Positions 27,633 through 52,904 are shown, numbered from the stretch's first letter. The stretch is 64,000 nucleotides of DNA from an uncultured Desulfobacteraceae bacterium (GCA_964410925.1 CAYPIW010000033.1:7266-71265), one strand, 5' to 3'. Program-made: numbers and translations. Notes: generated from the letters alone by a model not told the origin.

Positions 27633-29390
27633 TTAGGATCCCCACAGGGCATCCTTAAGTCCTGAGGTTCGTTCGATTTTACGGGATATGGTTCTTTTTA
27701 ATACATCTTCTGTCGCCCAAATCGACACGGTTTTTCTGGTCCTTGTTATTCCCGTGTAGAGCAGTTCCCGTGTTAATACCGGATAATCACGGTCCGGCAG
27801 AATTAACAGAACATGATCAAACTCCGATCCCTGGCTCTTGTGAACAGTCATTGCATAAACCGTTTCATGTTCCGGCAGCCGGTAAGGAAGAAACCGCCTG
27901 AGTTCGCCGGATTCTCCTGAAAAATAAACATACAGATCCTTGCCGGTTGAACCCGGAGCCGTCAGGGTTATTCCCATGTCTCCGTTAAAAAGTTTCATGC
28001 GGTAATCGTTGCGGGTAATCAAAACCGGTCTGCCTTTGTACCAGGGATTGGACGACGATCTGTCCGGCGCGATCAGACCCTCACGGATTAATACCTGCTC
28101 CGCCAACCGGTTGACGGCATTAACTCCCATTGAGCCGATTTTTATGGCACATAATATTTTGAACCTATTAAAAAGTTCAAGGGCTCTGTACGGATCATCC
28201 GTATTAAGATAATCCGAATAGCCTTTGATAATGCTATGGGTTAGGAAAAGTGACAGATCATCCGGCCGTGAAATCTTTCTCCAGGATATTTGGTCGGATT
28301 TGTTTTTCATCAGGTACAAGACCTTATGGATTTCTCCCCGGTTTACCGTACGGCTGAGTTTTCCTATTCCGCTGTCGCCGGTAAACCGATAGTTTTTTTT
28401 CAACACAACCATACAGTCGTAAAGACCGGGGGACTTTTTATGTTCTTTAAGCGGAAGTTCAATTTTTTGTTGGGTGACCGCTTCAAACTTGTTGCAAAAA
28501 CATTCTGAAAATGAGTGAACATTCTCTCTGTCACAGACATCTCCCAATACAAAACCGGTCTCAACCGAAGAAAGCTGGTCTTTGTCTCCGATCAATATGA
28601 TCCTGGCATCAAAAGGAACCGCCCAAAGGAGTTTTGACATCAATGCAAGATCTACCATTGAGGCTTCATCCACCACCACCACATCCGCATTAAGAGGGGT
28701 TTCATGGTTGTGTTGAAAATACGGGGAACCCGGGATGGTTTTGAGCATTCTGTGTATGGTATATGCTTCGGAAGGAATCGCCTCGATAATATCCCAAGGG
28801 CTGTTTAGCGTTTTCTTTGCATCATTCATTGATTCGGCAATCCGGGATGCAGCCTTTCCCGTGGGAGCGGCAAGCAAGATGTTAAGCTTCTCTTTTCCGT
28901 ACAACTCCAAAAGCAGCGCAAGGATCTTTGCCACGGTGAAGGTCTTCCCGGTTCCCGGCCCACCGGAGATAATACAAATTCTTTTAATGGCCGCAATGTA
29001 TGCCGCGACCATCTGCCAGTTAAACTCATGCTCTTCATTTTGCCGGAAAAGCCTCTTTAAACTTTCTTTTAAACGGGTGATATCCAAATCGCAGAAATCT
29101 TCTCCGGGCCATCCTACTACCGGGCTTTGCCTGATTTTTTGCATCCAGCCGGAAAGGTTCGGCCATTTGACAGTCCCCTCCTGTTCCAGACCCATAAAAA
29201 CCGATCTTTGGGCCATGGAAGCGAGGTCAAAATATACATCTCCATTGCCGGTGGCATTGCTGGCGAGGGCGGCGGCCAGGAAAATATCCGGATCATCATT
29301 TTTGCCGAGACCGGTGATGAACTTAGCAAAATGGATATCTATATCTGTCAAATATCCCATTTGATATAAATATGTTATGTGTTTTTCCAT
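27633..29390 (-). CDS. recD: Exodeoxyribonuclease V alpha subunit
   Basis: ISGGPGTGKTFTV, VVVDEASMVD, LIGDKDQLSSVE, YAMTVHKSQGSEF. Confidence 0.93.
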   Translation of the reverse strand: MEKHITYLYQMGYLTDIDIHFAKFITGLGKNDDPDIFLAAALASNATGNGDVYFDLASMAQRSVFMGLEQEGTVKWPNLSGWMQKIRQSPVVGWPGEDFCDLDITRLKESLKRLFRQNEEHEFNWQMVAAYIAAIKRICIISGGPGTGKTFTVAKILALLLELYGKEKLNILLAAPTGKAASRIAESMNDAKKTLNSPWDIIEAIPSEAYTIHRMLKTIPGSPYFQHNHETPLNADVVVVDEASMVDLALMSKLLWAVPFDARIILIGDKDQLSSVETGFVLGDVCDRENVHSFSECFCNKFEAVTQQKIELPLKEHKKSPGLYDCMVVLKKNYRFTGDSGIGKLSRTVNRGEIHKVLYLMKNKSDQISWRKISRPDDLSLFLTHSIIKGYSDYLNTDDPYRALELFNRFKILCAIKIGSMGVNAVNRLAEQVLIREGLIAPDRSSSNPWYKGRPVLITRNDYRMKLFNGDMGITLTAPGSTGKDLYVYFSGESGELRRFLPYRLPEHETVYAMTVHKSQGSEFDHVLLILPDRDYPVLTRELLYTGITRTRKTVSIWATEDVLKRTISRKIERTSGLKDALWGS

Positions 29391-29469
29391 AATTCATAAC
29401 ATTAAGATTTATAACAACGGTAACCGTTCAAGTCTAACGCACAAAAGAAGTTTTTTTCTAAGGTCTCCC

Positions 29470-29582
29470 GGGTGTAAATCAAGACTGTTGTCTGCTAAAG
29501 ATTGCCATGGCTACCTGATATCGAAGCCACGGTTTGTCAATGGCCAAGGATCAGCGGTTACCAGCGGCCTTGATTTACACCC
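29470..29582. mobile_element. MITE family B, copy 2, inserted in the 3' end of recB
   Basis: TIR gggtgtaaatcaag / cttgatttacaccc. 8-bp direct repeat GGTCTCCC at 29462-29469 and 29584-29591. The recB stop codon (29558-29560) lies inside the element. Confidence 0.65.
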
Positions 29583-32500
29583 GGGTCTCCCCCCGGAATA
29601 AGTGCCCTGGCCAGTGCATGAATAAGATCCGGACTGGGATAATCCTTGTAAATTCCGAATTCCGGTCCATAATCAGGATCCACCCCCCTTAAAAAAACAT
29701 AAAATACACCTCCAAAATCTTTTTCATAATCAAAACCCGGTAACCGAACCCAAAGATACTGATAAAGCGCAAGGGTATACAGATGATACTGGAGGATATA
29801 AAAATCATTACTCATCACGGTGTTCAATGCATCTCTCGAATAATCCTGCACGCGGGTTCCCAATAGATTCGACTTCCAGTCCACCAGGTAGTAACGCCCC
29901 TTTTCATGAAAGATCATGTCGATATATCCTTTCATGAACCCCTTTGTAAAAGGAAAAGTCAGCTTTCCAATCCGGTCCGGAAAATTGCCGGGAAATTGAA
30001 TGGTTCCATGATCGGAAAATATTTTTTTCAGTTGTTGCGGGGTAAAGGGATTCAACGGATAATAAAATTCCATCTCATTGATCCGATCGTTAAACGAGAC
30101 CGAAGAAAGCGTCAGAGATTCTGTTCTTATTTCGAGCGGTATGGATAGGACCCTGGTTATCATGCGGCATACCACATCCCGCCATTTTGAATCGAACCCA
30201 TATGCCGTTAATTTGCTGGTTACCAGTGTCTCTTTATATCCGCAATTCGAAGCTGTAAAATCGAGATGCTCAAAAATATCATGAAAAAAAAGCCCGGGCC
30301 TTGCGCCTTTTGGAAAGGAGAAAATGTCCATGCGTTCAATACGCTCAAGACCGTTCTCCGTGGTATAACCATAGGACACATCACGATCGGGCACCGCTTC
30401 TTCCGGGACCCGCTGCGATACCATGGATGAATAACTTGAGATTTTCCAGGAGGTGTCTATTTTTCCCGAAAATTGCCGGGAGGAAATTTCTTCCGTTTCA
30501 TCTTCGAAAGACGCATATTCCATACCGTTATTCGCAGGCAGCGGAACAAGTACGATGCTTCCTTTGGATTTGTCCGCCAGCTGTTTTAAATCTTCCAGCA
30601 ATTCCTCATCTTTTTTCTCTGAACACCTTGATTTTAAAGAAGATACCAGATCCTCTATTTTAATGTCATCTTCGGGTGGCGGCCCATAGTGAAAAAGGTA
30701 GGCCATGGCAGAGGTATCCGCGGTGTTGAATCGTCCCCATACCAGGTAACACCTTTTTATGGCGCGGGTTACCGCCACGTAAAGCAGTCGCATGTTCTCT
30801 GCCAGGAGTTCATTTTGAGCAAAGGTGAGATGAATATCTTTTTCACTGGAACCCAGATCCAGTGTCAGTTTCTTGGTATCATGATCATGGAATGCGATCT
30901 CCGGGGCTTTGATGAGTGATCCTCCCCATGAGAAGGGACAGAATACCACCGGAAATTCCAGCCCTTTGCTTTTGTGCAGTGTTATAATTTTTACGGCATG
31001 TTCATCGCTTTCAAGACGAAGCTGATGAATCTCGGATTCCGGAACAGGCGTGTTGATCTGTTCGGACATCCACTTCATTAACCCGGTGATCCCGGTTTGT
31101 TTTTCAACTGACTCCTGGTGGAGTATTTTGGCCAGATGAAGAAGGTTGGTCAGTCTTCTTTCCCCGTCCGAAAATGCCAAAAGCCGTTCTCTTATTTTCT
31201 CTTTTGACATGAAGTTCCGAAACATTCTGATAAAACCGTATCGGATCCACAGCCGAAAATACTCCATGAAGTTACTGACCCGGGGTTCCCACCCAAACGG
31301 CTGACTGTCTGCGGAATCGATTTTATGTCCGGAAACCCCCAGTATATCGGTCACAAGGGCGGTTTTGAACCGCCGCTCACTGCCAGGTTCGGAAATGCTC
31401 CAAAGAATCCTTTCCATGTCCCGGGCTTCGCAGGTATGAAAAATGTTCCCGGTATCATAGAGAACCGAGGGAATTCGTTTTAATAACAAACTGTTTTTAA
31501 TGATCTGAGCCTGCCGGTTCGTCCGAACAAGAACAGCGATATCCCCGGCGCTAATCCCGTCGGATTCATCACGGGACCAGCTCTTCGGACCCGGAGAAAT
31601 CAGGCGGGAAATTTCGTCCGTAACCGCCGTTGCAATCAGCGGCACGGCTTGGGTTTTGTTCAGAAGTTTTGACGTGTCCGTGTTTCTGCCCGATTCCCAA
31701 TACCACACTATAAGGGGGGAGGAGGATTTGTCATCCATGGATTGGATTTCTTCTCCGGGAATTCCTTTTTCAAACCCGATCTGCTCGAAAACAAACGGCG
31801 ATGGGACATTTGAAAATATGGTATTTACGGCTCTAATCAAACCGGCGTTCGACCGCCAGTTTTCTATCAAAGTATATTTTGAATTCGCATCGCCGGCAGC
31901 CGTCAGGTACGAAAAAATATCGGCCCCCCTGAAACTGTATATGGCCTGCTTGGGATCGCCGATCATAAACAGAACACTTCGTTTAGAATCAAAGAGCCTG
32001 CGAAATATTTCATACTGAACAGAATCGGTATCTTGAAATTCATCCACAAGGGCTGCTTTATATTGCCGGCGTATGGCTGATGCCAACTCATTGCCGCCGG
32101 TATCTTGGAGTGCTTTTTTCATTCTTATCAAAAGATCGTCAAAAAATTGTATGTTGCTCTTTTCTTTTATGACAGGGAGTTGTTCCCGGGCATAGCTGAA
32201 AAACAAGGTCTTCAAATATAAAAGGCAACGCTCCATTTCCGCTTCAAGGGAAAGCCCTTTTTCATAGAGTTCGTCACATATATTAAAAACATCGTGAAAC
32301 GGGGGAGTATGATTTTTTCTGGTGGACGCTGCAAGTTTGGTTGCAGTAAATTTCTCAAAATCTTTCACCACCGGGAACCCCATTGATTTTGAATCAACGA
32401 ATCTATCCATGGTTCGAGTCATGGACAAAACCTTCAGGTCCCTTTTGGAAAAACCCGTGTGGTTTGTTTCTGTCTTGGTGCTTCCGTAAACCGTACCGCT

Positions 32501-33211
32501 TAAACACGGATTTTTTAATAACGGTATGACCTGTTCCTTTGACAGGTTCCAGGCGATTTTAAGCCTTTTGAAAATATTTCTAAACTCATCAAGGATCTCC
32601 AAGTCAGGGGATTCGAGTTCCGGAATAATCCTCATATCCGGCGCATTATTTTTTGCCAAAAGCGCTAAAAAATATTCCGGACCGGATATCTTTTTGCTGG
32701 CATAGCTTATAAATTCCCGGGGCATATTGTAAAAATAGGTCCTCCAGAAGTCATCCACGATTTCCCTGGCCATATCGGCCTGATCGGTAACCAGTTCCGT
32801 ATCAAACAGACTTTGGGTTTCAAACGCATGCTTATTCAGCACCCTGTGGCAAAACCCGTGTATGGTAAAAATAGCGGCATTGTCAAAATCAATAAGGGCG
32901 TCTTGAATCAACCGAACGGCCAGAGCCGTATTCTCATATTTTTTAACAAGCCTGTTAATCAGATCGTTTTCGCTCGATCCCTTTGAGAATGCGGATTTCG
33001 CCTTCAAAAGCGTATTGCGGATCCGGTCTTTAAGCTCTTGGGTGGCAGCCTGGGTAAAGGTTACGACCAGAATCTGATCGGTGGTAAGGTGTTCTTCGAC
33101 AACCAGCCTTAAATAGATTCCTGCAATTGCGTAGGTCTTGCCGGTACCCGCACTTGCTTCAATAAGGTTGGTTCCCATAAGAGGGGTATTGATGGGATCA
33201 AAGATTTTCAC
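29558..33211 (-). CDS. recB: Exodeoxyribonuclease V beta subunit (UvrD-type helicase plus PD-(D/E)XK nuclease)
   Basis: IEASAGTGKTY, LVDEFQDTD, a UvrD_C region, and nuclease motif GYIDMIFHEKGRYYLVDWKSN. The last 8 codons (PGVNQGRW) are encoded by the MITE. Confidence 0.93.
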   Translation of the reverse strand: MKIFDPINTPLMGTNLIEASAGTGKTYAIAGIYLRLVVEEHLTTDQILVVTFTQAATQELKDRIRNTLLKAKSAFSKGSSENDLINRLVKKYENTALAVRLIQDALIDFDNAAIFTIHGFCHRVLNKHAFETQSLFDTELVTDQADMAREIVDDFWRTYFYNMPREFISYASKKISGPEYFLALLAKNNAPDMRIIPELESPDLEILDEFRNIFKRLKIAWNLSKEQVIPLLKNPCLSGTVYGSTKTETNHTGFSKRDLKVLSMTRTMDRFVDSKSMGFPVVKDFEKFTATKLAASTRKNHTPPFHDVFNICDELYEKGLSLEAEMERCLLYLKTLFFSYAREQLPVIKEKSNIQFFDDLLIRMKKALQDTGGNELASAIRRQYKAALVDEFQDTDSVQYEIFRRLFDSKRSVLFMIGDPKQAIYSFRGADIFSYLTAAGDANSKYTLIENWRSNAGLIRAVNTIFSNVPSPFVFEQIGFEKGIPGEEIQSMDDKSSSPLIVWYWESGRNTDTSKLLNKTQAVPLIATAVTDEISRLISPGPKSWSRDESDGISAGDIAVLVRTNRQAQIIKNSLLLKRIPSVLYDTGNIFHTCEARDMERILWSISEPGSERRFKTALVTDILGVSGHKIDSADSQPFGWEPRVSNFMEYFRLWIRYGFIRMFRNFMSKEKIRERLLAFSDGERRLTNLLHLAKILHQESVEKQTGITGLMKWMSEQINTPVPESEIHQLRLESDEHAVKIITLHKSKGLEFPVVFCPFSWGGSLIKAPEIAFHDHDTKKLTLDLGSSEKDIHLTFAQNELLAENMRLLYVAVTRAIKRCYLVWGRFNTADTSAMAYLFHYGPPPEDDIKIEDLVSSLKSRCSEKKDEELLEDLKQLADKSKGSIVLVPLPANNGMEYASFEDETEEISSRQFSGKIDTSWKISSYSSMVSQRVPEEAVPDRDVSYGYTTENGLERIERMDIFSFPKGARPGLFFHDIFEHLDFTASNCGYKETLVTSKLTAYGFDSKWRDVVCRMITRVLSIPLEIRTESLTLSSVSFNDRINEMEFYYPLNPFTPQQLKKIFSDHGTIQFPGNFPDRIGKLTFPFTKGFMKGYIDMIFHEKGRYYLVDWKSNLLGTRVQDYSRDALNTVMSNDFYILQYHLYTLALYQYLWVRLPGFDYEKDFGGVFYVFLRGVDPDYGPEFGIYKDYPSPDLIHALARALIPGGDPGVNQGRW

Positions 33212-38038: not shown

Positions 38039-38390
38039 TTCTATTTTGTCTTGAAAAACCTGATACTTTGGGCCTCCGGCTCGTAGAGCCTACGCCTCGG
38101 AGAGCCAGATCAGAATTAGATGGCTTTGCCTTGGAGTTTTGTGTCTAAAATCACAAGCTCCAAGCACCAAATTACAAATAAATCTCAAATTCCAATATTC
38201 AATAACCAAAACCTTTTATGACGAAACATTGTTTGGATTTTCGAATTTCGGTCATTGGAAATTGCCTGCCCCGTTAAATAAATCGAAGATTTAATGCGAA
38301 GCATTATTTAACAGGGTAAAATATTTGTTATTTGATATTTGTAATTTCAATAATTCAATAAACTTCCGACAAACCAAATCCCCTTTGGGA

Positions 38391-41249
38391 TCATCCCTTG
38401 TGCAGCACAATACCGGCAGGCAAAGATTCTCCGAAAATGTTGCTTTCCTCCTGTTTGGCCAGGGGAACCACTTCTTTCAGGTATGGGATATGCGGCCTCA
38501 ACAGTTGCTCCCGGTGGGGATCCTGGGTCATCCACGCCATAATCCGTTCCAAATGGGCGTGGTCCAGGTCCCGGGCACGATCGCCGGTTTTACGGGCCAG
38601 TTGGGTAATGGCCGCGCCCATGGGTCTGGGGTCGCGCCAGGTTGTTGAAATCAGTGTTTCAATCCAGGCAGCCGCTTCTTTAGCCGGTATCACACGGTCC
38701 ACGGACCCGTAAAGGAGCTCTCGAGCCCCCATGCGCGACAGGGCCCAGAAATGCTGGGGCCTGCTTTTTTTGGGTTTTATCTCGGACAGCAGGGCTCGAC
38801 CGCATTTGATCTTGTCTTTTGCCATCAAATGTTCCATATTGGCCACGGCCATCCAGATCTCCAGTCGTTGCTGGGGCGGCACTTTTTTTCGGGAACCTTT
38901 GCCGGGAAACAGTATCGGTGTCAGGTCCTGGAAGAATTGACGTTGCTGGCCGGGCTTCAGGCCGCCGGCCACCCGCCGCCACATGATCCACCATTCATTT
39001 TGTACCTGCAGATGATTGGGATGACACATTCCCTGAATGTAGATCTGCCAAATTTTTTTCATCCGTATGGGGTCCAGTGCGTCGGCGAATCCCGGACGCA
39101 TGCAAAATCCCAAAAAATTCAGCCAGCGGCTTTCAGCCAGGGCCGAATCGGTTCGAACGGTTTCAAGTTCGATGAGATCGTCGGCCATGCGGCGAATAAA
39201 CGTCAGGGGCCATTGTTCCTTTGGTCTTTCCACGCGTTTTGAAATATCTCTGGCAAGAGATATCCGGAAGGTGTCGGATGCCCCATCTGAAAACGCCTCC
39301 CGGATAAGTTCACGAACATTATCCACAACCGAAGATTCCAAGACTTCCTGATCCGCTACCGGCGCAGGCACCAAAACCGTGCGAAGTTGAAATTGAAGGT
39401 GCCAGCGGTGGGTGCTTACCAGACTCCGGCACCACAGCGCCAGGGCCCCCATCTCCGTATAGCTGGCTGCAATATGGATGGGGATGCGGGTTTGAACCCC
39501 TTTTTTCCCATACTGAATTATGGTTTGAATGGGCGGCAACGGGGTGAGAGAATCGTCTATGGTAACAAGATCGCCGCACCGGTCGCCGCTTCGAAAACTG
39601 GAGCTGTACATGTCAAAAGTAACCGGCTGGTTGGTCAACACCTCAAATTGACGGTCTTTCAATTCAATGTCGGTCCCCTCTTCCAAACCGCGTTCCACAA
39701 GGCATATGGCCTGTTTCCCGGTCTTTTGGCTGCGGGCGTCATCGGGATCGGCCACACCCAAATAAAACGCCCGGGGGCTTCCGCTGCCCACCCGAACCCC
39801 TTGACCGACCTTGACCCGTCCATAATAAGCCGCGCCCATTGCAACGGACAAATCGGGATCCGGGTTATCCAAAACCCTCGGCAGCGCATCATCCGGTTGC
39901 CCGAACCACTGCCGGATGGCGCCGCGAATCCGCTCCTGGATTACGGCCGGCTTTAACGATCCGCCGTTAAAGAGAATAATATCCGGTTCGGGCCGATCCT
40001 TTTGTAAAAATACGGCCACATCCGTGGCGTGCTGTTCCAAAAACCAGCACAGGTGTCGCGTGATGGCCGGTTCCTGTTCATACGGCAGTCCGAATTCCGT
40101 TATGCCTTTGCGCTTGGCCCGTGGTTTTTTCTCGGAAGGATCCACAAGGGGAAAAAATCCGTTCAAAATGGTTTCGGTGACTTCCCTTTGCCCGAGAGTA
40201 GCCGTCAGTGTTCCGGCAATCAGTTGACCGCCTTCCCCCATGAGGGCTATTTTTTTGGAATCCGCTCTTCCGTCGAGAAGGGTTTCTTTGGCCTGCCGAC
40301 ACTGGTGGCAAAGAGTTTTCCACCGATCGCCGCTCAGGGAATGTTTGTTTTTAAAAAATTGCGCTTCCAGGAGCCGTGCCAGTGCCAGATCCATATTATC
40401 CCCGCCCAGAATCAGATGATCTCCCACGGCAATGCGCTCAAACCGAGGGCTGCCGTTTACTTCCCGCAAATAGATCAAGGTAAAGTCCGTGGTCCCGCCC
40501 CCCACGTCGCAGATCAGGATGAGGTCTTTTGGTTTGACAAATCTGTTCCAGTCATGTTCATGGGTCATCAGCCAGCTGTAAAAGGCGGCCAATGGTTCTT
40601 CCAATAGCGTCACGTCGCCCATACCGGCTAATCCGGCCGCTTCAAGAGTCATCTCACGGGCCACCTCGTCAAAGGAAGCCGGTACAGTGATGATGACCAT
40701 CTGATATTCCAGAAAAGCCTCCTCATCGCTTTGTCTGCGATTCCAGGCACGGCGAATATGCCTTAAATAGGCGGCGGTGGCGTGAATGGGGGAAATTTTG
40801 AGAACCTCTTTGCTTGCGCCCCAGGGCAGTATAGGGGCTTTCCGATCCGCATTGGCGTGACATAGCCAGCTTTTGGCCGACCACACCAGACGGGCGGGCA
40901 CTTTGGCGCCGTGATCCCTGGCATAGGCTCCGGCAAAATTGTCGCCATGGCAACCCCAGTCATGGACAAGGCTCTGTTTGGAGATATCATAATCGCCGGG
41001 AATATAGAGAAAAGATGGCAAGACCGGCAGGCGGGAGACTTCGCCGGGACCGGTCAGTTGGGAAATGGGAAACAGATGGATGCGCATCCGCCCACTGCCC
41101 TCGGCATGTAAATCCACATAGAATACCGCCGAATTGGTAGTGCCCAGATCGATGCCGATAATGTAGCGCTGGCTGTCAAGATCCAAGACCGTGTTTCTCC
41201 CGTATATTGAACTCGAGTTTCCACCGGCGGCCGTCCACCCGTGACACAC
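38391..41249 (-). CDS. Hsp70-family ATPase, long form (about 930-952 aa) with a roughly 350-aa C-terminal helical extension
   Basis: IIGIDLGTTNSAV (phosphate-1) and CDVGGGTTDFTLI (phosphate-2). The tail is rich in Trp and Arg. The start is uncertain: ATG at 41249 (74-nt overlap with the upstream gene) or TTG at 41186 preceded by GGAGAA. Confidence 0.85.
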   Translation of the reverse strand: MCHGWTAAGGNSSSIYGRNTVLDLDSQRYIIGIDLGTTNSAVFYVDLHAEGSGRMRIHLFPISQLTGPGEVSRLPVLPSFLYIPGDYDISKQSLVHDWGCHGDNFAGAYARDHGAKVPARLVWSAKSWLCHANADRKAPILPWGASKEVLKISPIHATAAYLRHIRRAWNRRQSDEEAFLEYQMVIITVPASFDEVAREMTLEAAGLAGMGDVTLLEEPLAAFYSWLMTHEHDWNRFVKPKDLILICDVGGGTTDFTLIYLREVNGSPRFERIAVGDHLILGGDNMDLALARLLEAQFFKNKHSLSGDRWKTLCHQCRQAKETLLDGRADSKKIALMGEGGQLIAGTLTATLGQREVTETILNGFFPLVDPSEKKPRAKRKGITEFGLPYEQEPAITRHLCWFLEQHATDVAVFLQKDRPEPDIILFNGGSLKPAVIQERIRGAIRQWFGQPDDALPRVLDNPDPDLSVAMGAAYYGRVKVGQGVRVGSGSPRAFYLGVADPDDARSQKTGKQAICLVERGLEEGTDIELKDRQFEVLTNQPVTFDMYSSSFRSGDRCGDLVTIDDSLTPLPPIQTIIQYGKKGVQTRIPIHIAASYTEMGALALWCRSLVSTHRWHLQFQLRTVLVPAPVADQEVLESSVVDNVRELIREAFSDGASDTFRISLARDISKRVERPKEQWPLTFIRRMADDLIELETVRTDSALAESRWLNFLGFCMRPGFADALDPIRMKKIWQIYIQGMCHPNHLQVQNEWWIMWRRVAGGLKPGQQRQFFQDLTPILFPGKGSRKKVPPQQRLEIWMAVANMEHLMAKDKIKCGRALLSEIKPKKSRPQHFWALSRMGARELLYGSVDRVIPAKEAAAWIETLISTTWRDPRPMGAAITQLARKTGDRARDLDHAHLERIMAWMTQDPHREQLLRPHIPYLKEVVPLAKQEESNIFGESLPAGIVLHKG

Positions 41250-42975
41250 ACCACAATTCCAGGACTCCCATCTCGGTCACTCGAATTTCCAGGGCAACAG
41301 GAATCACGCTGCCGTATTCACCATCCAGAGTGGTTTCGATGACGGCAATGTCCTGGATCTCACTTTCCCAGTCTTCAACCACCGTGCCCGGTTCATGGTC
41401 ATGGCGCATGGAACTGAGAAAATCGAACGTAACGGGCTCACCCACCACCAAAGCAAACTCCTGGTTTTCAAGGGTTGCCTCAGTCCCTTCTTCCATGCCG
41501 AAGGGCGCCACACACAGCGCCTTGATAGGCGTCGGCATCCCCGGAACCGCCGGCATGGACGCGGCAATACCCACATAATAGGATTTGTTCAGACCGTATC
41601 GTATGCGAATGCCCCTGCCCCGCCTGGCCATCCCGTAATATACCGCACCTTTGGCAACCGCCAGGTCGAAGTCGCCCGATTCGATCTCCCGAATGGGCGG
41701 TGCATCCTCCGACGCTTTCCATAAAGACATAACCTCCATGATTCGGTTGCGGACGTTTTGCGCCTTTATTACGCCGCCGTTGAACAGGACCGCCGTGGGC
41801 ATGGCTTCACCGATGTTTTGCTGGAGAAACCGGGCCAGATGGTGGGTTACGGCAGGGTCGGACGCATAAGCCAGACCCATCTCCTGGATGCCGGTTTTTT
41901 GCGGGGAAACCGGTCTGGCCGTACGTTCGCAAAGCGGGAAAAAGCCGTCCAGCATGATCTTTTCAACCGTATCGCGGGAAAGCTCGGTTTTAACGGTTCC
42001 GCCAATCAGGCTGCTGCCTCTGCCCAAAACCGTCACCGGATATTCCCGGGCATCGGGGTCGGACAGAAGTTTCTCTTTGGCGTTGCGGCAGCCGTGCCAA
42101 AGCCCCCGCATCTGCCAGACGTCCAGCCGGGAACCTTTATCCGCCATTTGTCGAGAAATCGAATAGGCAATGGCCAAATCCATGTTATCGCCACCCACCA
42201 GCAGGTGCTCTCCCACCGCAATCCGCTCAAGGGCAAGTTCGCCCTGTTCTTCGGAAATTTTGATGAGGCTGAAATCGGTTGTCCCGCCGCCAATGTCGCA
42301 AACCAGAACAAGATCGCCTTTGCTAACCATCTCCCGCCAGCGATCGGAGGTCCTTTCAATCCATGCATAAAAGGCGGCCTGGGGTTCTTCCAGAAGGGTG
42401 ACAGTGTTCAGCCCGGACATCTCGGCGGCTTTTACCGTCAGCTCGCGAGCCACCGCATCAAAGGAAGCCGGTACGGTCAACAAAATTTCCTGGTTTTCCA
42501 TCTTCAACCGGTCGTCATCTGAAGCCATCGAGTGGTTCCAGGCATCCCGGATATGTTGGAGAATGGCTGCGGATGCTTGCACCGGTGATTTCTTAGATTT
42601 CGCATCAGGACCTTCCCAGGGAAGGATGGGCTTGTTCCGGTCGATCGTTGTATGACAGAGCCAGGATTTTGAAGAAGCGATCAAACGGCTGGGCAGCTCA
42701 ACACCGCGAGTTTTGGCAAATTCGCCCACCGCCAGGGGCCCACCCTTGTGCCACGGTAAATCCATGGCGGTTTTGGAAACATCGTGTTCCCCCGGAATCA
42801 GTATAAAAGAGGGAAGCATTTGCCGCTTTTCCACCACGCCGGCATCAATGAGCTGGGGAATTTCAAATAAGTGTATCTTAAAGGAGCGACCTGTTTCCGA
42901 ATCCGCCTCGGTGTAGGCCACAACGCTGTTGGTTGTCCCAAGATCGATTCCTATCACATAAACCGGGTTTGGCAT
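41176..42975 (-). CDS. Hsp70-family ATPase, short form (599 aa)
   Basis: VIGIDLGTTNSVVAY and CDIGGGTTDFSLI, with a beta-rich C-terminal domain and no helical lid or EEVD-type tail. Confidence 0.88.
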   Translation of the reverse strand: MPNPVYVIGIDLGTTNSVVAYTEADSETGRSFKIHLFEIPQLIDAGVVEKRQMLPSFILIPGEHDVSKTAMDLPWHKGGPLAVGEFAKTRGVELPSRLIASSKSWLCHTTIDRNKPILPWEGPDAKSKKSPVQASAAILQHIRDAWNHSMASDDDRLKMENQEILLTVPASFDAVARELTVKAAEMSGLNTVTLLEEPQAAFYAWIERTSDRWREMVSKGDLVLVCDIGGGTTDFSLIKISEEQGELALERIAVGEHLLVGGDNMDLAIAYSISRQMADKGSRLDVWQMRGLWHGCRNAKEKLLSDPDAREYPVTVLGRGSSLIGGTVKTELSRDTVEKIMLDGFFPLCERTARPVSPQKTGIQEMGLAYASDPAVTHHLARFLQQNIGEAMPTAVLFNGGVIKAQNVRNRIMEVMSLWKASEDAPPIREIESGDFDLAVAKGAVYYGMARRGRGIRIRYGLNKSYYVGIAASMPAVPGMPTPIKALCVAPFGMEEGTEATLENQEFALVVGEPVTFDFLSSMRHDHEPGTVVEDWESEIQDIAVIETTLDGEYGSVIPVALEIRVTEMGVLELWCVSRVDGRRWKLEFNIREKHGLGS

Positions 42976-42995
42976 AAATTTTTTTCCTAATCTAA

Positions 42996-43045
42996 AAGAT
43001 TAAAGTGCCTAAAGTTCAAAGTGAGCTAAAGTGAACTAAAGTTAA
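42996..43045. repeat. 9-10-bp periodic AAAGTNNNN tandem repeat in the DUF2760/Hsp70 intergenic region
   Basis: taaagtgcctaaagttcaaagtgagctaaagtgaactaaagtt, related to 35588-35633. Confidence 0.6.
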
Positions 43046-43143
43046 TGTATTTGCCTTATTTCATTAGTAATAAATAACCCAATAATTTTATTACTTATAA
43101 AAAATAAAAAAAGCTTCTCGAAAATTTTCATGAAATATTCGGG

Positions 43144-43896
43144 TTAGAGGATTTCCACCTCCGCCGGAGCGATGATGCGTGCATCTTGACCCCCGGATAG
43201 AGCGGGCAGTTCCAGCTTTCGGGAGCGCCAGCCTTTATGACGTAAAATACCTTTGAACGGCGGCTCACCCGTTACATTGCCGGTCAGTTTTATGGCGTCG
43301 GGATCGAACCCCGGTTCAATCCGAATCTCTTCTCCTTCGCTGCGGTCTATGACCGCCTCAAGGGAAAGACTTTTGTTCATGGCGTTTTTACAGTTCTCGT
43401 GGATGGCGCGAACCGCACCGCCGATCTGTGCATCTTCATAATGATTGAGATCTTCCGATAAAAAATCTACCAGACGTCCTTCCCGCTGAAGCACGGACAG
43501 CAGGTGTAAAAACAGGCGCTGTTGAGTGTACTGTTGAGCTTCCCGATCAGCAGTGGATGCTACCGGTGCCGGAACCTGTTTTTTCCGCACGGGTTTGCCG
43601 GATTTTTTGAAAGAATTTACAGCGATTCTCCGCAAACCGCCCCACAACAGGATGCCGAAAATCAGGAAAACGCCTCCCCATATGCACGCCGCATAGATAA
43701 ACACCTTATGATGAATCAAAGAGATGGGATCAAGGAGCGCCGTTGAGAGGGTTTGGGGAGTTACCAGCAATGATATGTCCCGGTACATTCCCTGCAGTAC
43801 CCAGTAAAACCCTGAAACCGTAGCCGCCAGCAATATGACGCCCAGCACTGAAATTAAAACAAAAGATCCGCGTGAATAGGACTTGATGAATTCCAT
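43144..43896 (-). CDS. DUF2760-like protein with two N-terminal transmembrane helices
   Basis: Hydrophobic segments FVLISVLGVILLAATVSGFYWVL and VFIYAACIWGGVFLIFGILLWGGL. The C-terminal domain LLSVLQREGRLVDFLSEDL...GWRSRKLELP...IIAPAEVEIL is recognised from memory as DUF2760. Confidence 0.7.
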   Translation of the reverse strand: MEFIKSYSRGSFVLISVLGVILLAATVSGFYWVLQGMYRDISLLVTPQTLSTALLDPISLIHHKVFIYAACIWGGVFLIFGILLWGGLRRIAVNSFKKSGKPVRKKQVPAPVASTADREAQQYTQQRLFLHLLSVLQREGRLVDFLSEDLNHYEDAQIGGAVRAIHENCKNAMNKSLSLEAVIDRSEGEEIRIEPGFDPDAIKLTGNVTGEPPFKGILRHKGWRSRKLELPALSGGQDARIIAPAEVEIL

Positions 43897-44082: not shown

Positions 44083-44150
44083 TGATTTCGGTACAGCGTA
44101 GCGACTGCGGGTTTCTCTTTCCAACCGACTGACTGTTTGAAGGGGTTTGT
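44083..44150. repeat. Dispersed repeat family D, immediately 3' of the flavoprotein gene
   Basis: tgatttcggtacagcgtagcgactgcgggtttctctttccaaccgactgactgtttgaagg. Related copies lie at 47808-47880, 47979-48056 (inverted) and 55314-55350. Confidence 0.6.
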
Positions 44151-44947: not shown

Positions 44948-45100
44948 TTAGCAATATCTAAATACGACCTTGAAAACTTCGCAGATCGTAATGACAGGTA
45001 CAATCAGGGAGGATGTATCATTCAGGGGAGGCAAGTAATATTTTGTATTCGGTCCATCGGAAAAATATTCCAGCCAGCCTGAGGAATCAATAATATTCAT
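44948..45100 (-). pseudogene. vapC: Truncated PIN-domain toxin (vapC remnant)
   Basis: ATGA overlap with the antitoxin stop. Translation MNIIDSSGWLEYFSDGPNTKYYLPPLNDTSSLIVPVITICEVFKVV matches a VapC N-terminus, then stops after about 50 codons. No PIN C-terminal acidic residues are found in any frame downstream. Confidence 0.6.
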
Positions 45101-45303
45101 ACCCGATCTTTCTCACGTTCGATATGCGTATCCATTCCCTTGAGGAACCCTCTGAGTTCAGAAATATCCCGGTCCGGTATCAGTTCAATTCGCCCATCAT
45201 ATTCGATCACTCTAATTTTCTGCCCAGGCCGCAGTCGTAATGTATCCCTGATTTCTTTCGGTATCACCACCTGATATTTAGGGGATACTGTGACGGTTTG
45301 CAT
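45097..45303 (-). CDS. AbrB/MazE/SpoVT-family antitoxin (VapB-like)
   Basis: MQTVTVSPKYQVVIPKEIRDTLRLRPGQKIRVIEYDGRIELIP. Confidence 0.85.
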   Translation of the reverse strand: MQTVTVSPKYQVVIPKEIRDTLRLRPGQKIRVIEYDGRIELIPDRDISELRGFLKGMDTHIEREKDRV

Positions 45304-51887: not shown

Positions 51888-52904
51888 TTAGAATTGATAT
51901 GATATACTGAGCGAACCAAATGAATCCGCACTGTCTTGCCTGTGGTATTCTTTGGTGCGATAAATTTGTGTATAACTCATACGGACCCGGTGTACCTGGA
52001 TCGCGATACCGACCTGTAGATCGCCAACCCATAGCTTTTTATCCACCGAATGGCTATTGGAGAAGGTATTTCCGTCAAGAAATATATTATACAATACAGC
52101 ACGTCCTTCTATACCGGAGAATACATACCAGTTAAAACCTTTCCTGCCGCGAAAAAAACCGCCGCCCGGTAAGCTCGGCTGGATTCGTGGCGGACCGAAA
52201 TCTTCATCCAGGTCCGGCCCTATCCTTAGGGTCAGGCCGGCGGAAGCATAGGTAAAAACATTGCCAAGACTGCCACCAAAATGGGGAATAACATCATACT
52301 CTAAACCATATAACAACATATTTTTTTCCAAGCGTCGCGCCTGCTCATAGAACACGTTTATACCCGGCTCATTTTCCAATTGATGATCCCATCCCTCGGG
52401 CTTTCGCAAATCAAAGATAGAATGCCATTTTTTTTGCACTTCTTCAGCATATGATAATGGGCCGACCACACCGATATCGATCTCAAGTTTGTCATAGCGT
52501 TTACTCCCCTGGTTCGCAACCAGCCCGAAGCCCAGATACAGCCAACCCGCATAAGGCCGATCTTCCTTAATCAACTGAGGATCGGTAATATCTTCGGGGG
52601 TATAAATATTCTGGCCGATTGAAATGCTGGCTCGTGCCTGCAGCGCATTTTCGGGGTGTGTAAGCACATCTTCCTCAATGAACCAGGGGAGTTTGGTTGC
52701 TGCATTCGTAATCCATTGTATGGGTTGGGTCAGGCAATTAAAGCGGGTGCCGTGAGTGAAATGCCTGTCAGTTCCGCCGCCGAATAAATCATTTTCCAAT
52801 TGCACGCTGCACGTAAGACCGGGCTCATCGGCCGAAGCCGACCGAGGGTCATCGTAAAAACACAAGATCGTCAAGATAAGTATAAGTACTCGAACAAAAA
52901 ACAC
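51888..52904 (-). CDS. LpxR-family lipid A 3-O-deacylase-like outer-membrane protein
   Basis: Signal peptide plus LENDLFGGGTDRHFTHGTRF. The beta-barrel-like C-terminus ends in YQF. GTG start. Confidence 0.8.
   Translation of the reverse strand: MFFVRVLILILTILCFYDDPRSASADEPGLTCSVQLENDLFGGGTDRHFTHGTRFNCLTQPIQWITNAATKLPWFIEEDVLTHPENALQARASISIGQNIYTPEDITDPQLIKEDRPYAGWLYLGFGLVANQGSKRYDKLEIDIGVVGPLSYAEEVQKKWHSIFDLRKPEGWDHQLENEPGINVFYEQARRLEKNMLLYGLEYDVIPHFGGSLGNVFTYASAGLTLRIGPDLDEDFGPPRIQPSLPGGGFFRGRKGFNWYVFSGIEGRAVLYNIFLDGNTFSNSHSVDKKLWVGDLQVGIAIQVHRVRMSYTQIYRTKEYHRQDSADSFGSLSISYQF

Follow-up and report, generated by a model that had tools for sequence, protein, structure and literature searches.

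Known Hsp70 Systems and the Locus Compared With Them

To our knowledge, bacterial Hsp70 biology is that of DnaK, HscA, and HscC, all of which need J-domain partners. DjlA is said to tether DnaK to the inner membrane, and E. coli HscC reportedly works with the membrane-anchored partners DjlB and DjlC. Hsp110 and Grp170 are long Hsp70s paired with canonical Hsp70s, in which the long member serves as a holdase or exchange factor, while HspBP1, Fes1, and Sil1 are armadillo-repeat (ARM) alpha-solenoids that bind the Hsp70 nucleotide-binding domain (NBD) and drive nucleotide exchange. The locus described here lies on the minus strand of a 64,000-nt stretch of DNA from an uncultured Desulfobacteraceae bacterium (GCA_964410925.1 CAYPIW010000033.1:7266-71265; the whole stretch is called the window below) and consists of three genes, which encode a small membrane protein of Pfam family DUF2760, a short Hsp70 without a lid, and a long Hsp70 that ends in a domain of family DUF3731. 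The trio is judged to be a self-contained, J-independent, membrane-tethered Hsp70 pair. Overall, with a probability of about 0.55, the two Hsp70s act as a pair that DUF2760 recruits and regulates at the membrane in place of the classical co-chaperones.

The arrangement resembles HscC with DjlB/DjlC in that a specialised, putatively non-heat-shock Hsp70 is encoded beside a membrane-anchored partner. However, the partners of HscC are J-domain proteins, whereas DUF2760 contains neither a J-domain nor an HPD motif and the J-contacting arginine is gone from the Hsp70s of this locus. HscC also has a lid, while this locus encodes two Hsp70s, of which the first has no lid and the second carries an alpha-solenoid. 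A standard-length Hsp70 beside a longer, divergent paralogue recalls the Hsp70-Hsp110/Grp170 and Ssz1-Ssb/RAC pairs, which may serve as a model for the co-translation of the two proteins. In Hsp110, by contrast, the extension is an enlarged substrate-binding domain (SBD) and lid with no ARM/HEAT solenoid, and homology stops at the Hsp70 core; furthermore, the pairing at this locus is a putative one, with 12 of 51 informative loci carrying one of the two Hsp70s alone. HspBP1, Fes1, and Sil1 suggest a possible role for the DUF3731 solenoid, but they are absent from its top Foldseek matches and the likeness is purely one of analogy.

Two further bacterial proteins invite comparison with the long Hsp70. 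CnuD of type III CoCoNuT systems comprises an Hsp70-like NBD and SBD followed by HEAT-like repeats, is linked or fused to McrB/McrC, has degenerate ATPase motifs, and is proposed to bind RNA (PMC11090510). Its domain order, taken from the described architecture alone, equals that of the long Hsp70; the ATPase motifs are intact here, however, the partner is DUF2760, and neither the neighbours in the window nor the flanking families that recur include McrB or McrC (DUF2357). CnuD may thus be viewed as an architectural analogue, possibly a relative. MXAN_5323 of Myxococcus xanthus is a 925-aa non-canonical Hsp70 that CDD classifies by its NBD only; it is non-essential, mildly heat-induced, and upregulated in development, and without it sporulation and resistance to oxidative stress are lower (PMC8265645). 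Length and NBD-only classification fit a long Hsp70 of the DUF3731 type, which MXAN_5323 probably is; neither a DUF2760 gene nor an adjacent Hsp70 is mentioned in PMC8265645. If orthologous, it would be the sole member of the family with phenotypes. The stkABC genes of Myxococcus were considered as a counterpart and rejected, as StkB is SCP2-like, StkC is PhaE-like, and both a DUF2760 gene and another Hsp70 are missing. The names DUF2760 and DUF3731 occur in none of the ~8 million papers searched; the families are catalogued but uncharacterised, and the module may represent a type of bacterial Hsp70 machine not described before.

The Two Hsp70 Paralogues

The short and long Hsp70s match Pfam PF00012 at E=7e-21 and E=1e-15, respectively, with both matches confined to the NBD core, and share 41% identity over residues 6-592. 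The phosphate motifs IGIDLGTTNS and D[VI]GGGTTDF are present in both. When 53 short and 49 long family members are aligned to E. coli DnaK, the residues D8, T11, T12, K70, R151, E171, D194, G196-G198, T199, and D201 (DnaK numbering) are invariant in both paralogues, one incomplete short sequence excepted, and N13 is nearly so. Because the catalytic residues are kept, both Hsp70s should hydrolyse ATP. At the position of DnaK R167, an arginine known to contact the HPD motif of J-domains, every one of the 102 members has T, I, V, or L, and the position of K155 is hydrophobic across both families.

Beyond the NBD, the two proteins part ways. The short Hsp70 was described from the sequence as lacking a lid or EEVD tail, and it does indeed end directly after its beta domain. 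In the long Hsp70, residues 163-281 alone align to the DnaK NBD among PDB sequences (E ~3e-12), and nothing there aligns to the tail. An AlphaFold2 (AF2) model of residues 440-931, with a mean predicted local distance difference test (pLDDT) of 77.7, contains a beta-rich domain (473-598) that matches the SBDs of DnaK, BiP, and Hsp70 in Foldseek searches of the PDB (probability >=0.97; 3dqg, TMt 0.51), and this is followed by an all-helical domain at about 618-917 (pLDDT 85-96). The latter matches ARM/HEAT solenoids, namely the designed armadillo 4hxt (TMt 0.49), Rpn2, and the ARM domain of TIR-1. The tail, whose structure the sequence-only reading had left to be predicted, is modelled as an ARM/HEAT-like alpha-solenoid that comes after an SBD-beta-like domain.

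That reading had also described a Trp/Arg-rich helical C-terminal extension. The extension is real (3.3% Trp and 9.4% Arg) but not anonymous, since it belongs to the curated family DUF3731 (PF12531, 'DNA-K related protein'), which it matches across model positions 2-248 of 248 with E=7.6e-84 and 281.9 bits (cut-off 25). PF12531 is found in all 120 homologues listed for the long Hsp70, and 119 of them carry PF00012 too. The DUF3731 domain is predicted to be an ARM/HEAT-like alpha-solenoid that stands in place of the Hsp70 helical lid. MreB/ParM-type filament proteins were considered as an alternative identity for the two ATPases and rejected: PF06723 scores 34 and 31 bits (cut-off 27) and covers only ~110 residues of the shared ATPase core, TIGR00904 reaches 34-37 bits against a cut-off of 365, and an SBD-like domain is present.

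The DUF2760 Membrane Protein

The recognition of the 250-aa protein as a DUF2760 member with two transmembrane helices is upheld. Residues 127-248 match Pfam PF10816 (model positions 3-124 of 124) at E=1.5e-50 and 170.6 bits, far above the cut-off of 25, and strongly hydrophobic segments lie at residues 12-30 and 65-83. The second of these is directly followed by a K/R-rich segment, RRIAVNSFKKSGKPVRKKQ. Under the positive-inside rule for membrane topology, this stretch predicts an N-in/C-in arrangement, and therefore a cytoplasmic DUF2760 domain on the same side as the Hsp70s. Together, the two helices and the K/R-rich stretch make membrane tethering plausible, as the sequence-only reading had supposed.

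In the AF2 model of the protein (pLDDT 73.9), a helical hairpin is joined by a disordered linker (residues 101-109) to three helices and a small beta region, which is closed by the invariant motif PAEVEI. The alignment of 32 diverse members shows 22 invariant columns in the DUF2760 domain. PAEVEI is not favoured as a free tail of the EEVD type to which the solenoid would dock, as the motif forms the last beta strand of the domain in the model and is also kept in the member from Thiodictyon, where a DUF3731 partner is missing.

The family is large, with 1,811 clusters at 50% identity, and at least one transmembrane segment is predicted in 141 of 150 representatives. Bradyrhizobium members have two strong transmembrane helices, and in betaproteobacterial members the N-terminal segment is moderately hydrophobic or amphipathic and leads into an Ala/Pro-rich linker.

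Conservation of the Trio and Absence of Co-Chaperone Genes

Searches with the long Hsp70 and with DUF2760 each return at least 8,000 candidates. A genome scan limited to one genome per species finds more than 520 genomes with a DUF2760 gene, and the best 80 loci (L001-L080) are all from Desulfobacterota; the 51 loci with at least 5.6 kb downstream of DUF2760 are informative. In 45 of these, at least one of the two Hsp70s is directly downstream of DUF2760, and 33 have the complete order of DUF2760, short Hsp70, and long Hsp70-DUF3731. Within most of the 33, the distance from the short-Hsp70 stop to the long-Hsp70 start is -7 to +50 nt. The same gene order with tight spacing or overlap bears out the earlier suggestion of a dedicated module.

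The trio also recurs outside Desulfobacterota. It is found, with overlapping genes, in a Comamonadaceae megaplasmid, in Variovorax, in another betaproteobacterium, on Burkholderia and Caballeronia replicons, and on two conjugative Bradyrhizobium plasmids, namely B. barranii pCC829_3 (L082) and Bradyrhizobium sp. CB82 pCB82_1 (L091); one copy lies between trb transfer genes and a topoisomerase gene, and the other is ~1 kb upstream of groES-groEL with an IS256 transposase nearby. The range of the trio takes in Desulfobacterota and Alpha-, Beta-, and Gammaproteobacteria. The trio operon is conserved across bacterial phyla and is inherited as a unit in many bacteria, and the module is mobile in some lineages, as on the Bradyrhizobium plasmids.

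The sequence-only reading had remarked that no co-chaperone is encoded in cis. This is borne out in the window, where no J-domain or GrpE gene is found among the neighbours scanned, and elsewhere, as neither DnaJ nor GrpE is among the recurrent families listed in a Pfam scan of the 144 nearest flanking genes in Desulfobacterota.

Several loci depart from the common layout. At L002 (10001-13659), which is 84-87% identical to the window, the long Hsp70 comes directly after DUF2760, which means a very recent loss or gain of the short Hsp70 in this lineage. A two-gene form with DUF2760 and the short Hsp70 but no DUF3731 protein is found in Thiodictyon; on T. syntrophicum plasmid pTs485 (L083, 1-16000), it lies amid DISARM-like DUF1156/DUF3780 genes and genes for a PLD anti-phage protein, VapC, and a TIR-domain protein. 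A lone DUF2760 (L047) and, elsewhere, an Hsp70 pair (L088) are encoded on one and the same Desulfosarcina chromosome, and so the families co-occur even when unlinked. The short-long Hsp70 pair of L088 (9778-10626) and that of L089 (9778-10614), both from Desulfosarcina, have no DUF2760 upstream, and a gene for a Cys-rich, 280-aa protein (CGACCG motif, no Pfam match) that no other locus has overlaps the long-Hsp70 stop. The lone DUF2760 of L030 (8107-13682) lies between an upstream ABC_tran_2 (PF16949) gene and a downstream DUF6178 gene, which is another alternative partner set for DUF2760. In three Desulfosarcina genomes, a lone DUF2760 paralogue has after it a gene for a sensor histidine kinase of ~900 aa with HisKA and HATPase_c domains (L041, 11039-13684; L047, 10911-13640; L066, 11005-13734), and the N-terminal 670 aa of the kinase match no family. 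Finally, at L019 (18118-18330), 2.6 kb downstream of an intact long Hsp70, there is a fragment with 58% identity to residues 87-157 of the query used for DUF3731, which is made up of the last 251 aa of the long Hsp70; the fragment may be a pseudogene remnant.

Proposed Working and Alternative Explanations

On the predicted topology, the transmembrane hairpin and the flexible K/R-rich linker hold the DUF2760 domain at the inner membrane, on its cytoplasmic side. In the proposed working of the trio, the two Hsp70s would work as a pair, possibly as a heterodimer like Hsp70-Hsp110, and the solenoid of the long Hsp70 may provide a lid, an adaptor, or an exchange-factor surface. The genomic context suggests that the DUF2760 domain could substitute for co-chaperones by bringing the pair to the membrane and gating its ATPase cycle. 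Clients would then be membrane-proximal, and the task would be to control the quality of membrane or envelope proteins, to remodel them, or to relay a membrane signal. Whether DUF2760 is a true new co-chaperone is rather doubtful. Similarly tentative is the broadest view, which holds that the trio is a fourth bacterial Hsp70 system beside DnaK, HscA, and HscC that does without J-proteins and GrpE, that DUF2760 is a new co-chaperone fold that anchors the machine and drives its cycle, and that the solenoid replaces the lid or acts as a built-in exchange factor for the lidless paralogue.

A number of observations weigh against this working. The trio is incomplete in several loci, with DUF2760 followed by the long Hsp70 alone in 8 of 51, by the short Hsp70 alone in 4, and by neither in 6, and a strict heterodimer is therefore not universal. 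The likeness of the beta-rich domain to an SBD is modest (Foldseek E ~1e-3, TM-scores of ~0.3-0.5, pLDDT 66-83, no sequence-level match). Heat-shock control is not apparent near the operon, where no CIRCE element, sigma-32 consensus, RNA thermometer, or other Rfam family is found. The DUF2760 fold has no significant Foldseek match in the PDB (best E=0.78), and its profile finds no solved relative among PDB sequences. A reading of DUF2760 as a divergent GrpE was prompted by a Foldseek match to GrpEL1 (probability 0.13), the helices-then-beta layout, and a by-eye likeness of motifs (FDP...GW/GY...APAEVEI vs RPAMVKV), and it was rejected. The GrpE model PF01025 gives no hmmscan match at E<=10 in 32 DUF2760 members, hhalign puts the probability at 0.1% over the whole domain and at 0.4% when the beta sub-domains are compared, and 48 of 200 column-shuffled controls score at least as high. 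As the GrpE profile consists of three sequences recovered from the PDB, these results speak against a detectable relationship and not against a very remote one.

The rival explanations differ in what they make of the Hsp70s and of their setting. One takes the two proteins as plain orthologues of DnaK, HscA, or HscC, with J-protein and exchange-factor partners encoded elsewhere; in its favour, the NBD motifs are canonical and the best NCBIfam matches are the HscA and DnaK models (TIGR01991, 95.2 bits, cut-off 708.55; NF001413, 74.3 bits, cut-off 648). Scores of 57-95 bits against equivalog cut-offs of 620-1019 nevertheless make this highly improbable, as do a Pfam HSP70 match that covers the NBD core alone, the absent lid, the family-wide replacement of the J-contact arginine, and the strict linkage of these Hsp70s to the specific accessory families DUF3731 and DUF2760. 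By sequence criteria, the two Hsp70s are not DnaK, HscA, or HscC orthologues, and the scores, the missing lid, and the R167 replacement contradict the plain orthology that the sequence-only reading had left open while bearing out its description of them as non-canonical. Its suggestion of horizontal acquisition fares less well. The block is visibly GC-richer than its surroundings, as had been noted, with a GC content of 0.55 in the two Hsp70 genes vs 0.44 in the rest of the window and many shadow open reading frames (ORFs) over the Hsp70 genes. This excess of +10.9 points, the sharing of flanks with the closest relative alone, and the plasmid-borne copies in other phyla could point to a recently acquired genomic island, a GC-rich foreign block whose content is incidental to the host. 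However, the GC of the Hsp70 pair exceeds that of the flanks in 38 of 38 loci with enough flank, across genome GC contents of 0.32-0.70 (median excess +4.8 points; +10 to +11 in the near relatives L002 and L003), and the excess is therefore a property of the genes and no sign of recent transfer. The repeat mosaics said to bracket the block are trivial: Tandem Repeats Finder (TRF) gives low-scoring, AT-rich micro-repeats in intergenic DNA at 38072-38106, 38321-38361, 43018-43042, and 43097-43111 and none at 44083-44150, and pairs of direct or inverted repeats around the block are no more than chance would give. In addition, the window has no tRNA genes, no integrase or transposase is found among the window neighbours scanned, and the nearest homologues are all of the same order, all of which makes a recent island quite unlikely. 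Some rearrangement has occurred, since the window shares its FMN-reductase neighbour with L001, its closest relative (92-95% identity), but shares no flanks with L002-L004 (80-87% identity), and L002 lacks the short Hsp70.

The remaining two alternatives assign the module a different task. An anti-phage or conflict system, in which the Hsp70-like ATPases would sense infection and activate the two-helix DUF2760 protein as a membrane-disrupting effector in abortive infection, is suggested by the same domain architecture in CnuD, an Hsp70-NBD/SBD with HEAT repeats from type III CoCoNuT (PMC11090510). The Thiodictyon pair in its island of DISARM-like, PLD, VapC, and TIR genes, the conjugative Bradyrhizobium plasmids, the MazE antitoxin gene 1.2 kb upstream in the window, and the variation among close relatives (the short Hsp70 absent from L002, flanks unshared at 80-87% identity) are compatible with such a role. 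Yet the sole PADLOC-DB v2 match of the three proteins is PDC-M61B (E ~1e-4, 18.7 bits), and the 144 Desulfobacterota flanking genes give generic kinase-type PADLOC matches and housekeeping Pfam families, so that the association with defence islands raised by the sequence-only reading is not general and is limited to one two-gene relative in Thiodictyon. Neighbours are metabolic in Burkholderia, Variovorax, and the window, there is no McrB-like partner, and sequence conservation is very high with intact ATPase motifs, where those of CnuD are degenerate. No copies occur in 50,697 phage records or in IMG/VR, and a phage or viral origin is likewise rejected. A defence function is accordingly unlikely, which narrows the choice among stress, export, and defence that had been posed. 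It is also rather unlikely that the Hsp70 pair is a regulatory switch like the non-chaperone Hsp70s StkA or Ssz1, one that controls DUF2760 or is controlled by it, relays an envelope signal, and folds no clients, a role for which a regulatory Hsp70 offers precedent (PMC4319316). Here the case is built on the three Desulfosarcina genomes in which a 910-aa sensor histidine kinase comes after a lone DUF2760 paralogue, on two-component genes that flank the Variovorax locus, and on histidine kinases as the most frequent flanking family (6 of 144). The kinase linkage is limited to one genus, however, and is loose, with gaps of ~270-360 nt between the genes. Kinase genes are also common, so that a share of 6 in 144 is no clear enrichment. 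The conserved catalytic and SBD-like features fit a signalling switch as well as they fit a membrane-recruited chaperone pair.

The module is abundant, from sulfate reducers to Burkholderia, Variovorax, and Bradyrhizobium. If its ATPases do cycle with DUF2760 instead of J-proteins and GrpE, this would be a new mode of Hsp70 regulation and would point to an unstudied pathway of membrane-proximal proteostasis or signalling. Should it prove to be a conflict system instead, chaperone-type ATPases would be tied to immunity beyond CoCoNuT CnuD. Variovorax, Burkholderia, and possibly Myxococcus are tractable hosts for study.

Gene Starts and Layout of the Locus

An ORF scan of the window finds all three same-direction ORFs on the minus strand where the sequence-only reading had placed them (Table 1), and the three genes form one operon. 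The long Hsp70, which had been put at roughly 950 aa, is a real gene of 931 aa. Its longest ORF (38391-41249, 952 aa) begins at the most upstream GTG, but homologues start with M(D/N)L(D/L)xxRYIIGIDLG and public gene callers give 931 aa, and the true start is therefore the TTG at 41186, with GGGAG ~9 nt upstream. The two Hsp70 genes do overlap as had been seen, by 11 nt from the corrected start instead of 74 nt, and this stop/start overlap implies translational coupling of the short and long Hsp70s. The spacer between DUF2760 and the short Hsp70 contains the Shine-Dalgarno sequence AGGA of the latter, and no Rfam element is found in it.

Table 1. Features of the three-gene locus, in window coordinates. 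NBD, nucleotide-binding domain; SBD, substrate-binding domain; ORF, open reading frame; AF2, AlphaFold2; TRF, Tandem Repeats Finder.
Feature	Position	Strand	Evidence
Gene 1, DUF2760 membrane protein, 250 aa	43144..43896	-	ORF; Pfam PF10816, E=1.5e-50; identical in public assemblies' calls
Shine-Dalgarno AAGGAG of gene 1		-	Sequence
Putative transmembrane helix 1, DUF2760 protein residues 12-30	43807..43863	-	Kyte-Doolittle 19-aa mean 2.48; long helix in AF2
Putative transmembrane helix 2, DUF2760 protein residues 65-83	43648..43704	-	Kyte-Doolittle mean 2.37; AF2 helix 55-99
DUF2760 domain, predicted cytoplasmic, residues 127-248	43153..43518	-	Pfam match; helices then small beta region; AF2 pLDDT ~75
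Spacer DUF2760/short Hsp70, 168 nt, AT-rich	42976..43143	-	10-nt x 2.5 micro-repeat inside (TRF)
Gene 2, short lidless Hsp70, 599 aa	41176..42975	-	ORF; PF00012, E=7e-21
Short-Hsp70 NBD	~41611-42975	-	By paralogy to gene 3
Short-Hsp70 SBD-beta-like domain	~41200-41583	-	By paralogy to gene 3
Overlap of short-Hsp70 stop (TGA) and long-Hsp70 start (TTG), 11 nt	41176..41186	-	Homologue N-termini; public gene calls
Gene 3, long Hsp70, 931 aa (NBD, SBD-beta-like domain, DUF3731 alpha-solenoid)	38391..41186	-	ORF; Pfam; homologue N-termini; public gene calls
Long-Hsp70 NBD, residues 1-461	39804..41186	-	phmmer vs DnaK NBD structures, E ~3e-12, alignment up to residue 461
Long-Hsp70 SBD-beta-like domain, residues 473-598	39393..39770	-	AF2 strands (crop residues 34-159); Foldseek
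Long-Hsp70 DUF3731 predicted alpha-solenoid, residues ~618-928	38403..39335	-	Pfam PF12531; AF2; Foldseek

Neighbouring Genes

The genes around the module in the window are purB, nifU, nifS, and genes for an FMN reductase, a Gate transporter, a CAP protein, an amidoligase, LpxR, and RecD/RecB-like helicases. Among the 144 flanking genes elsewhere, the families are those of housekeeping, including histidine kinases, GDPD, PilT, PGI, rhamnose/polysaccharide genes, MlaE, and FabH. When flanking ORFs are clustered, the single other recurrent neighbour is a gene for a secreted, ComEA-like helix-hairpin-helix protein of ~98 aa, which is found at 23 of 80 loci. It lies ~240 nt upstream of DUF2760 (e.g., L063, 863-1159) and is not present in the window.

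A gene for a 68-aa MazE-family antitoxin (PF04014, E=1.3e-11) is located on the minus strand at 45097-45303, ~1.2 kb upstream of the DUF2760 gene. It is followed, down to 44785, by two tiny ORFs of 50 and 55 aa in public calls, and no recognisable toxin is found there. At 27633-33211, also on the minus strand, a gene for a RecD-like helicase (585 aa) adjoins one for a 1217-aa UvrD/RecB-like helicase, and the two are probably a pair of the RecBCD or AddAB type. A minus-strand gene for the lipid A deacylase LpxR is found at 51888-52904, 8 kb upstream of the module, and in the Comamonadaceae plasmid an lpxR gene (L081, 7512-8540) is immediately upstream of DUF2760. The proximity of LpxR to the module at both loci may be a coincidence or a hint of a link to the envelope.

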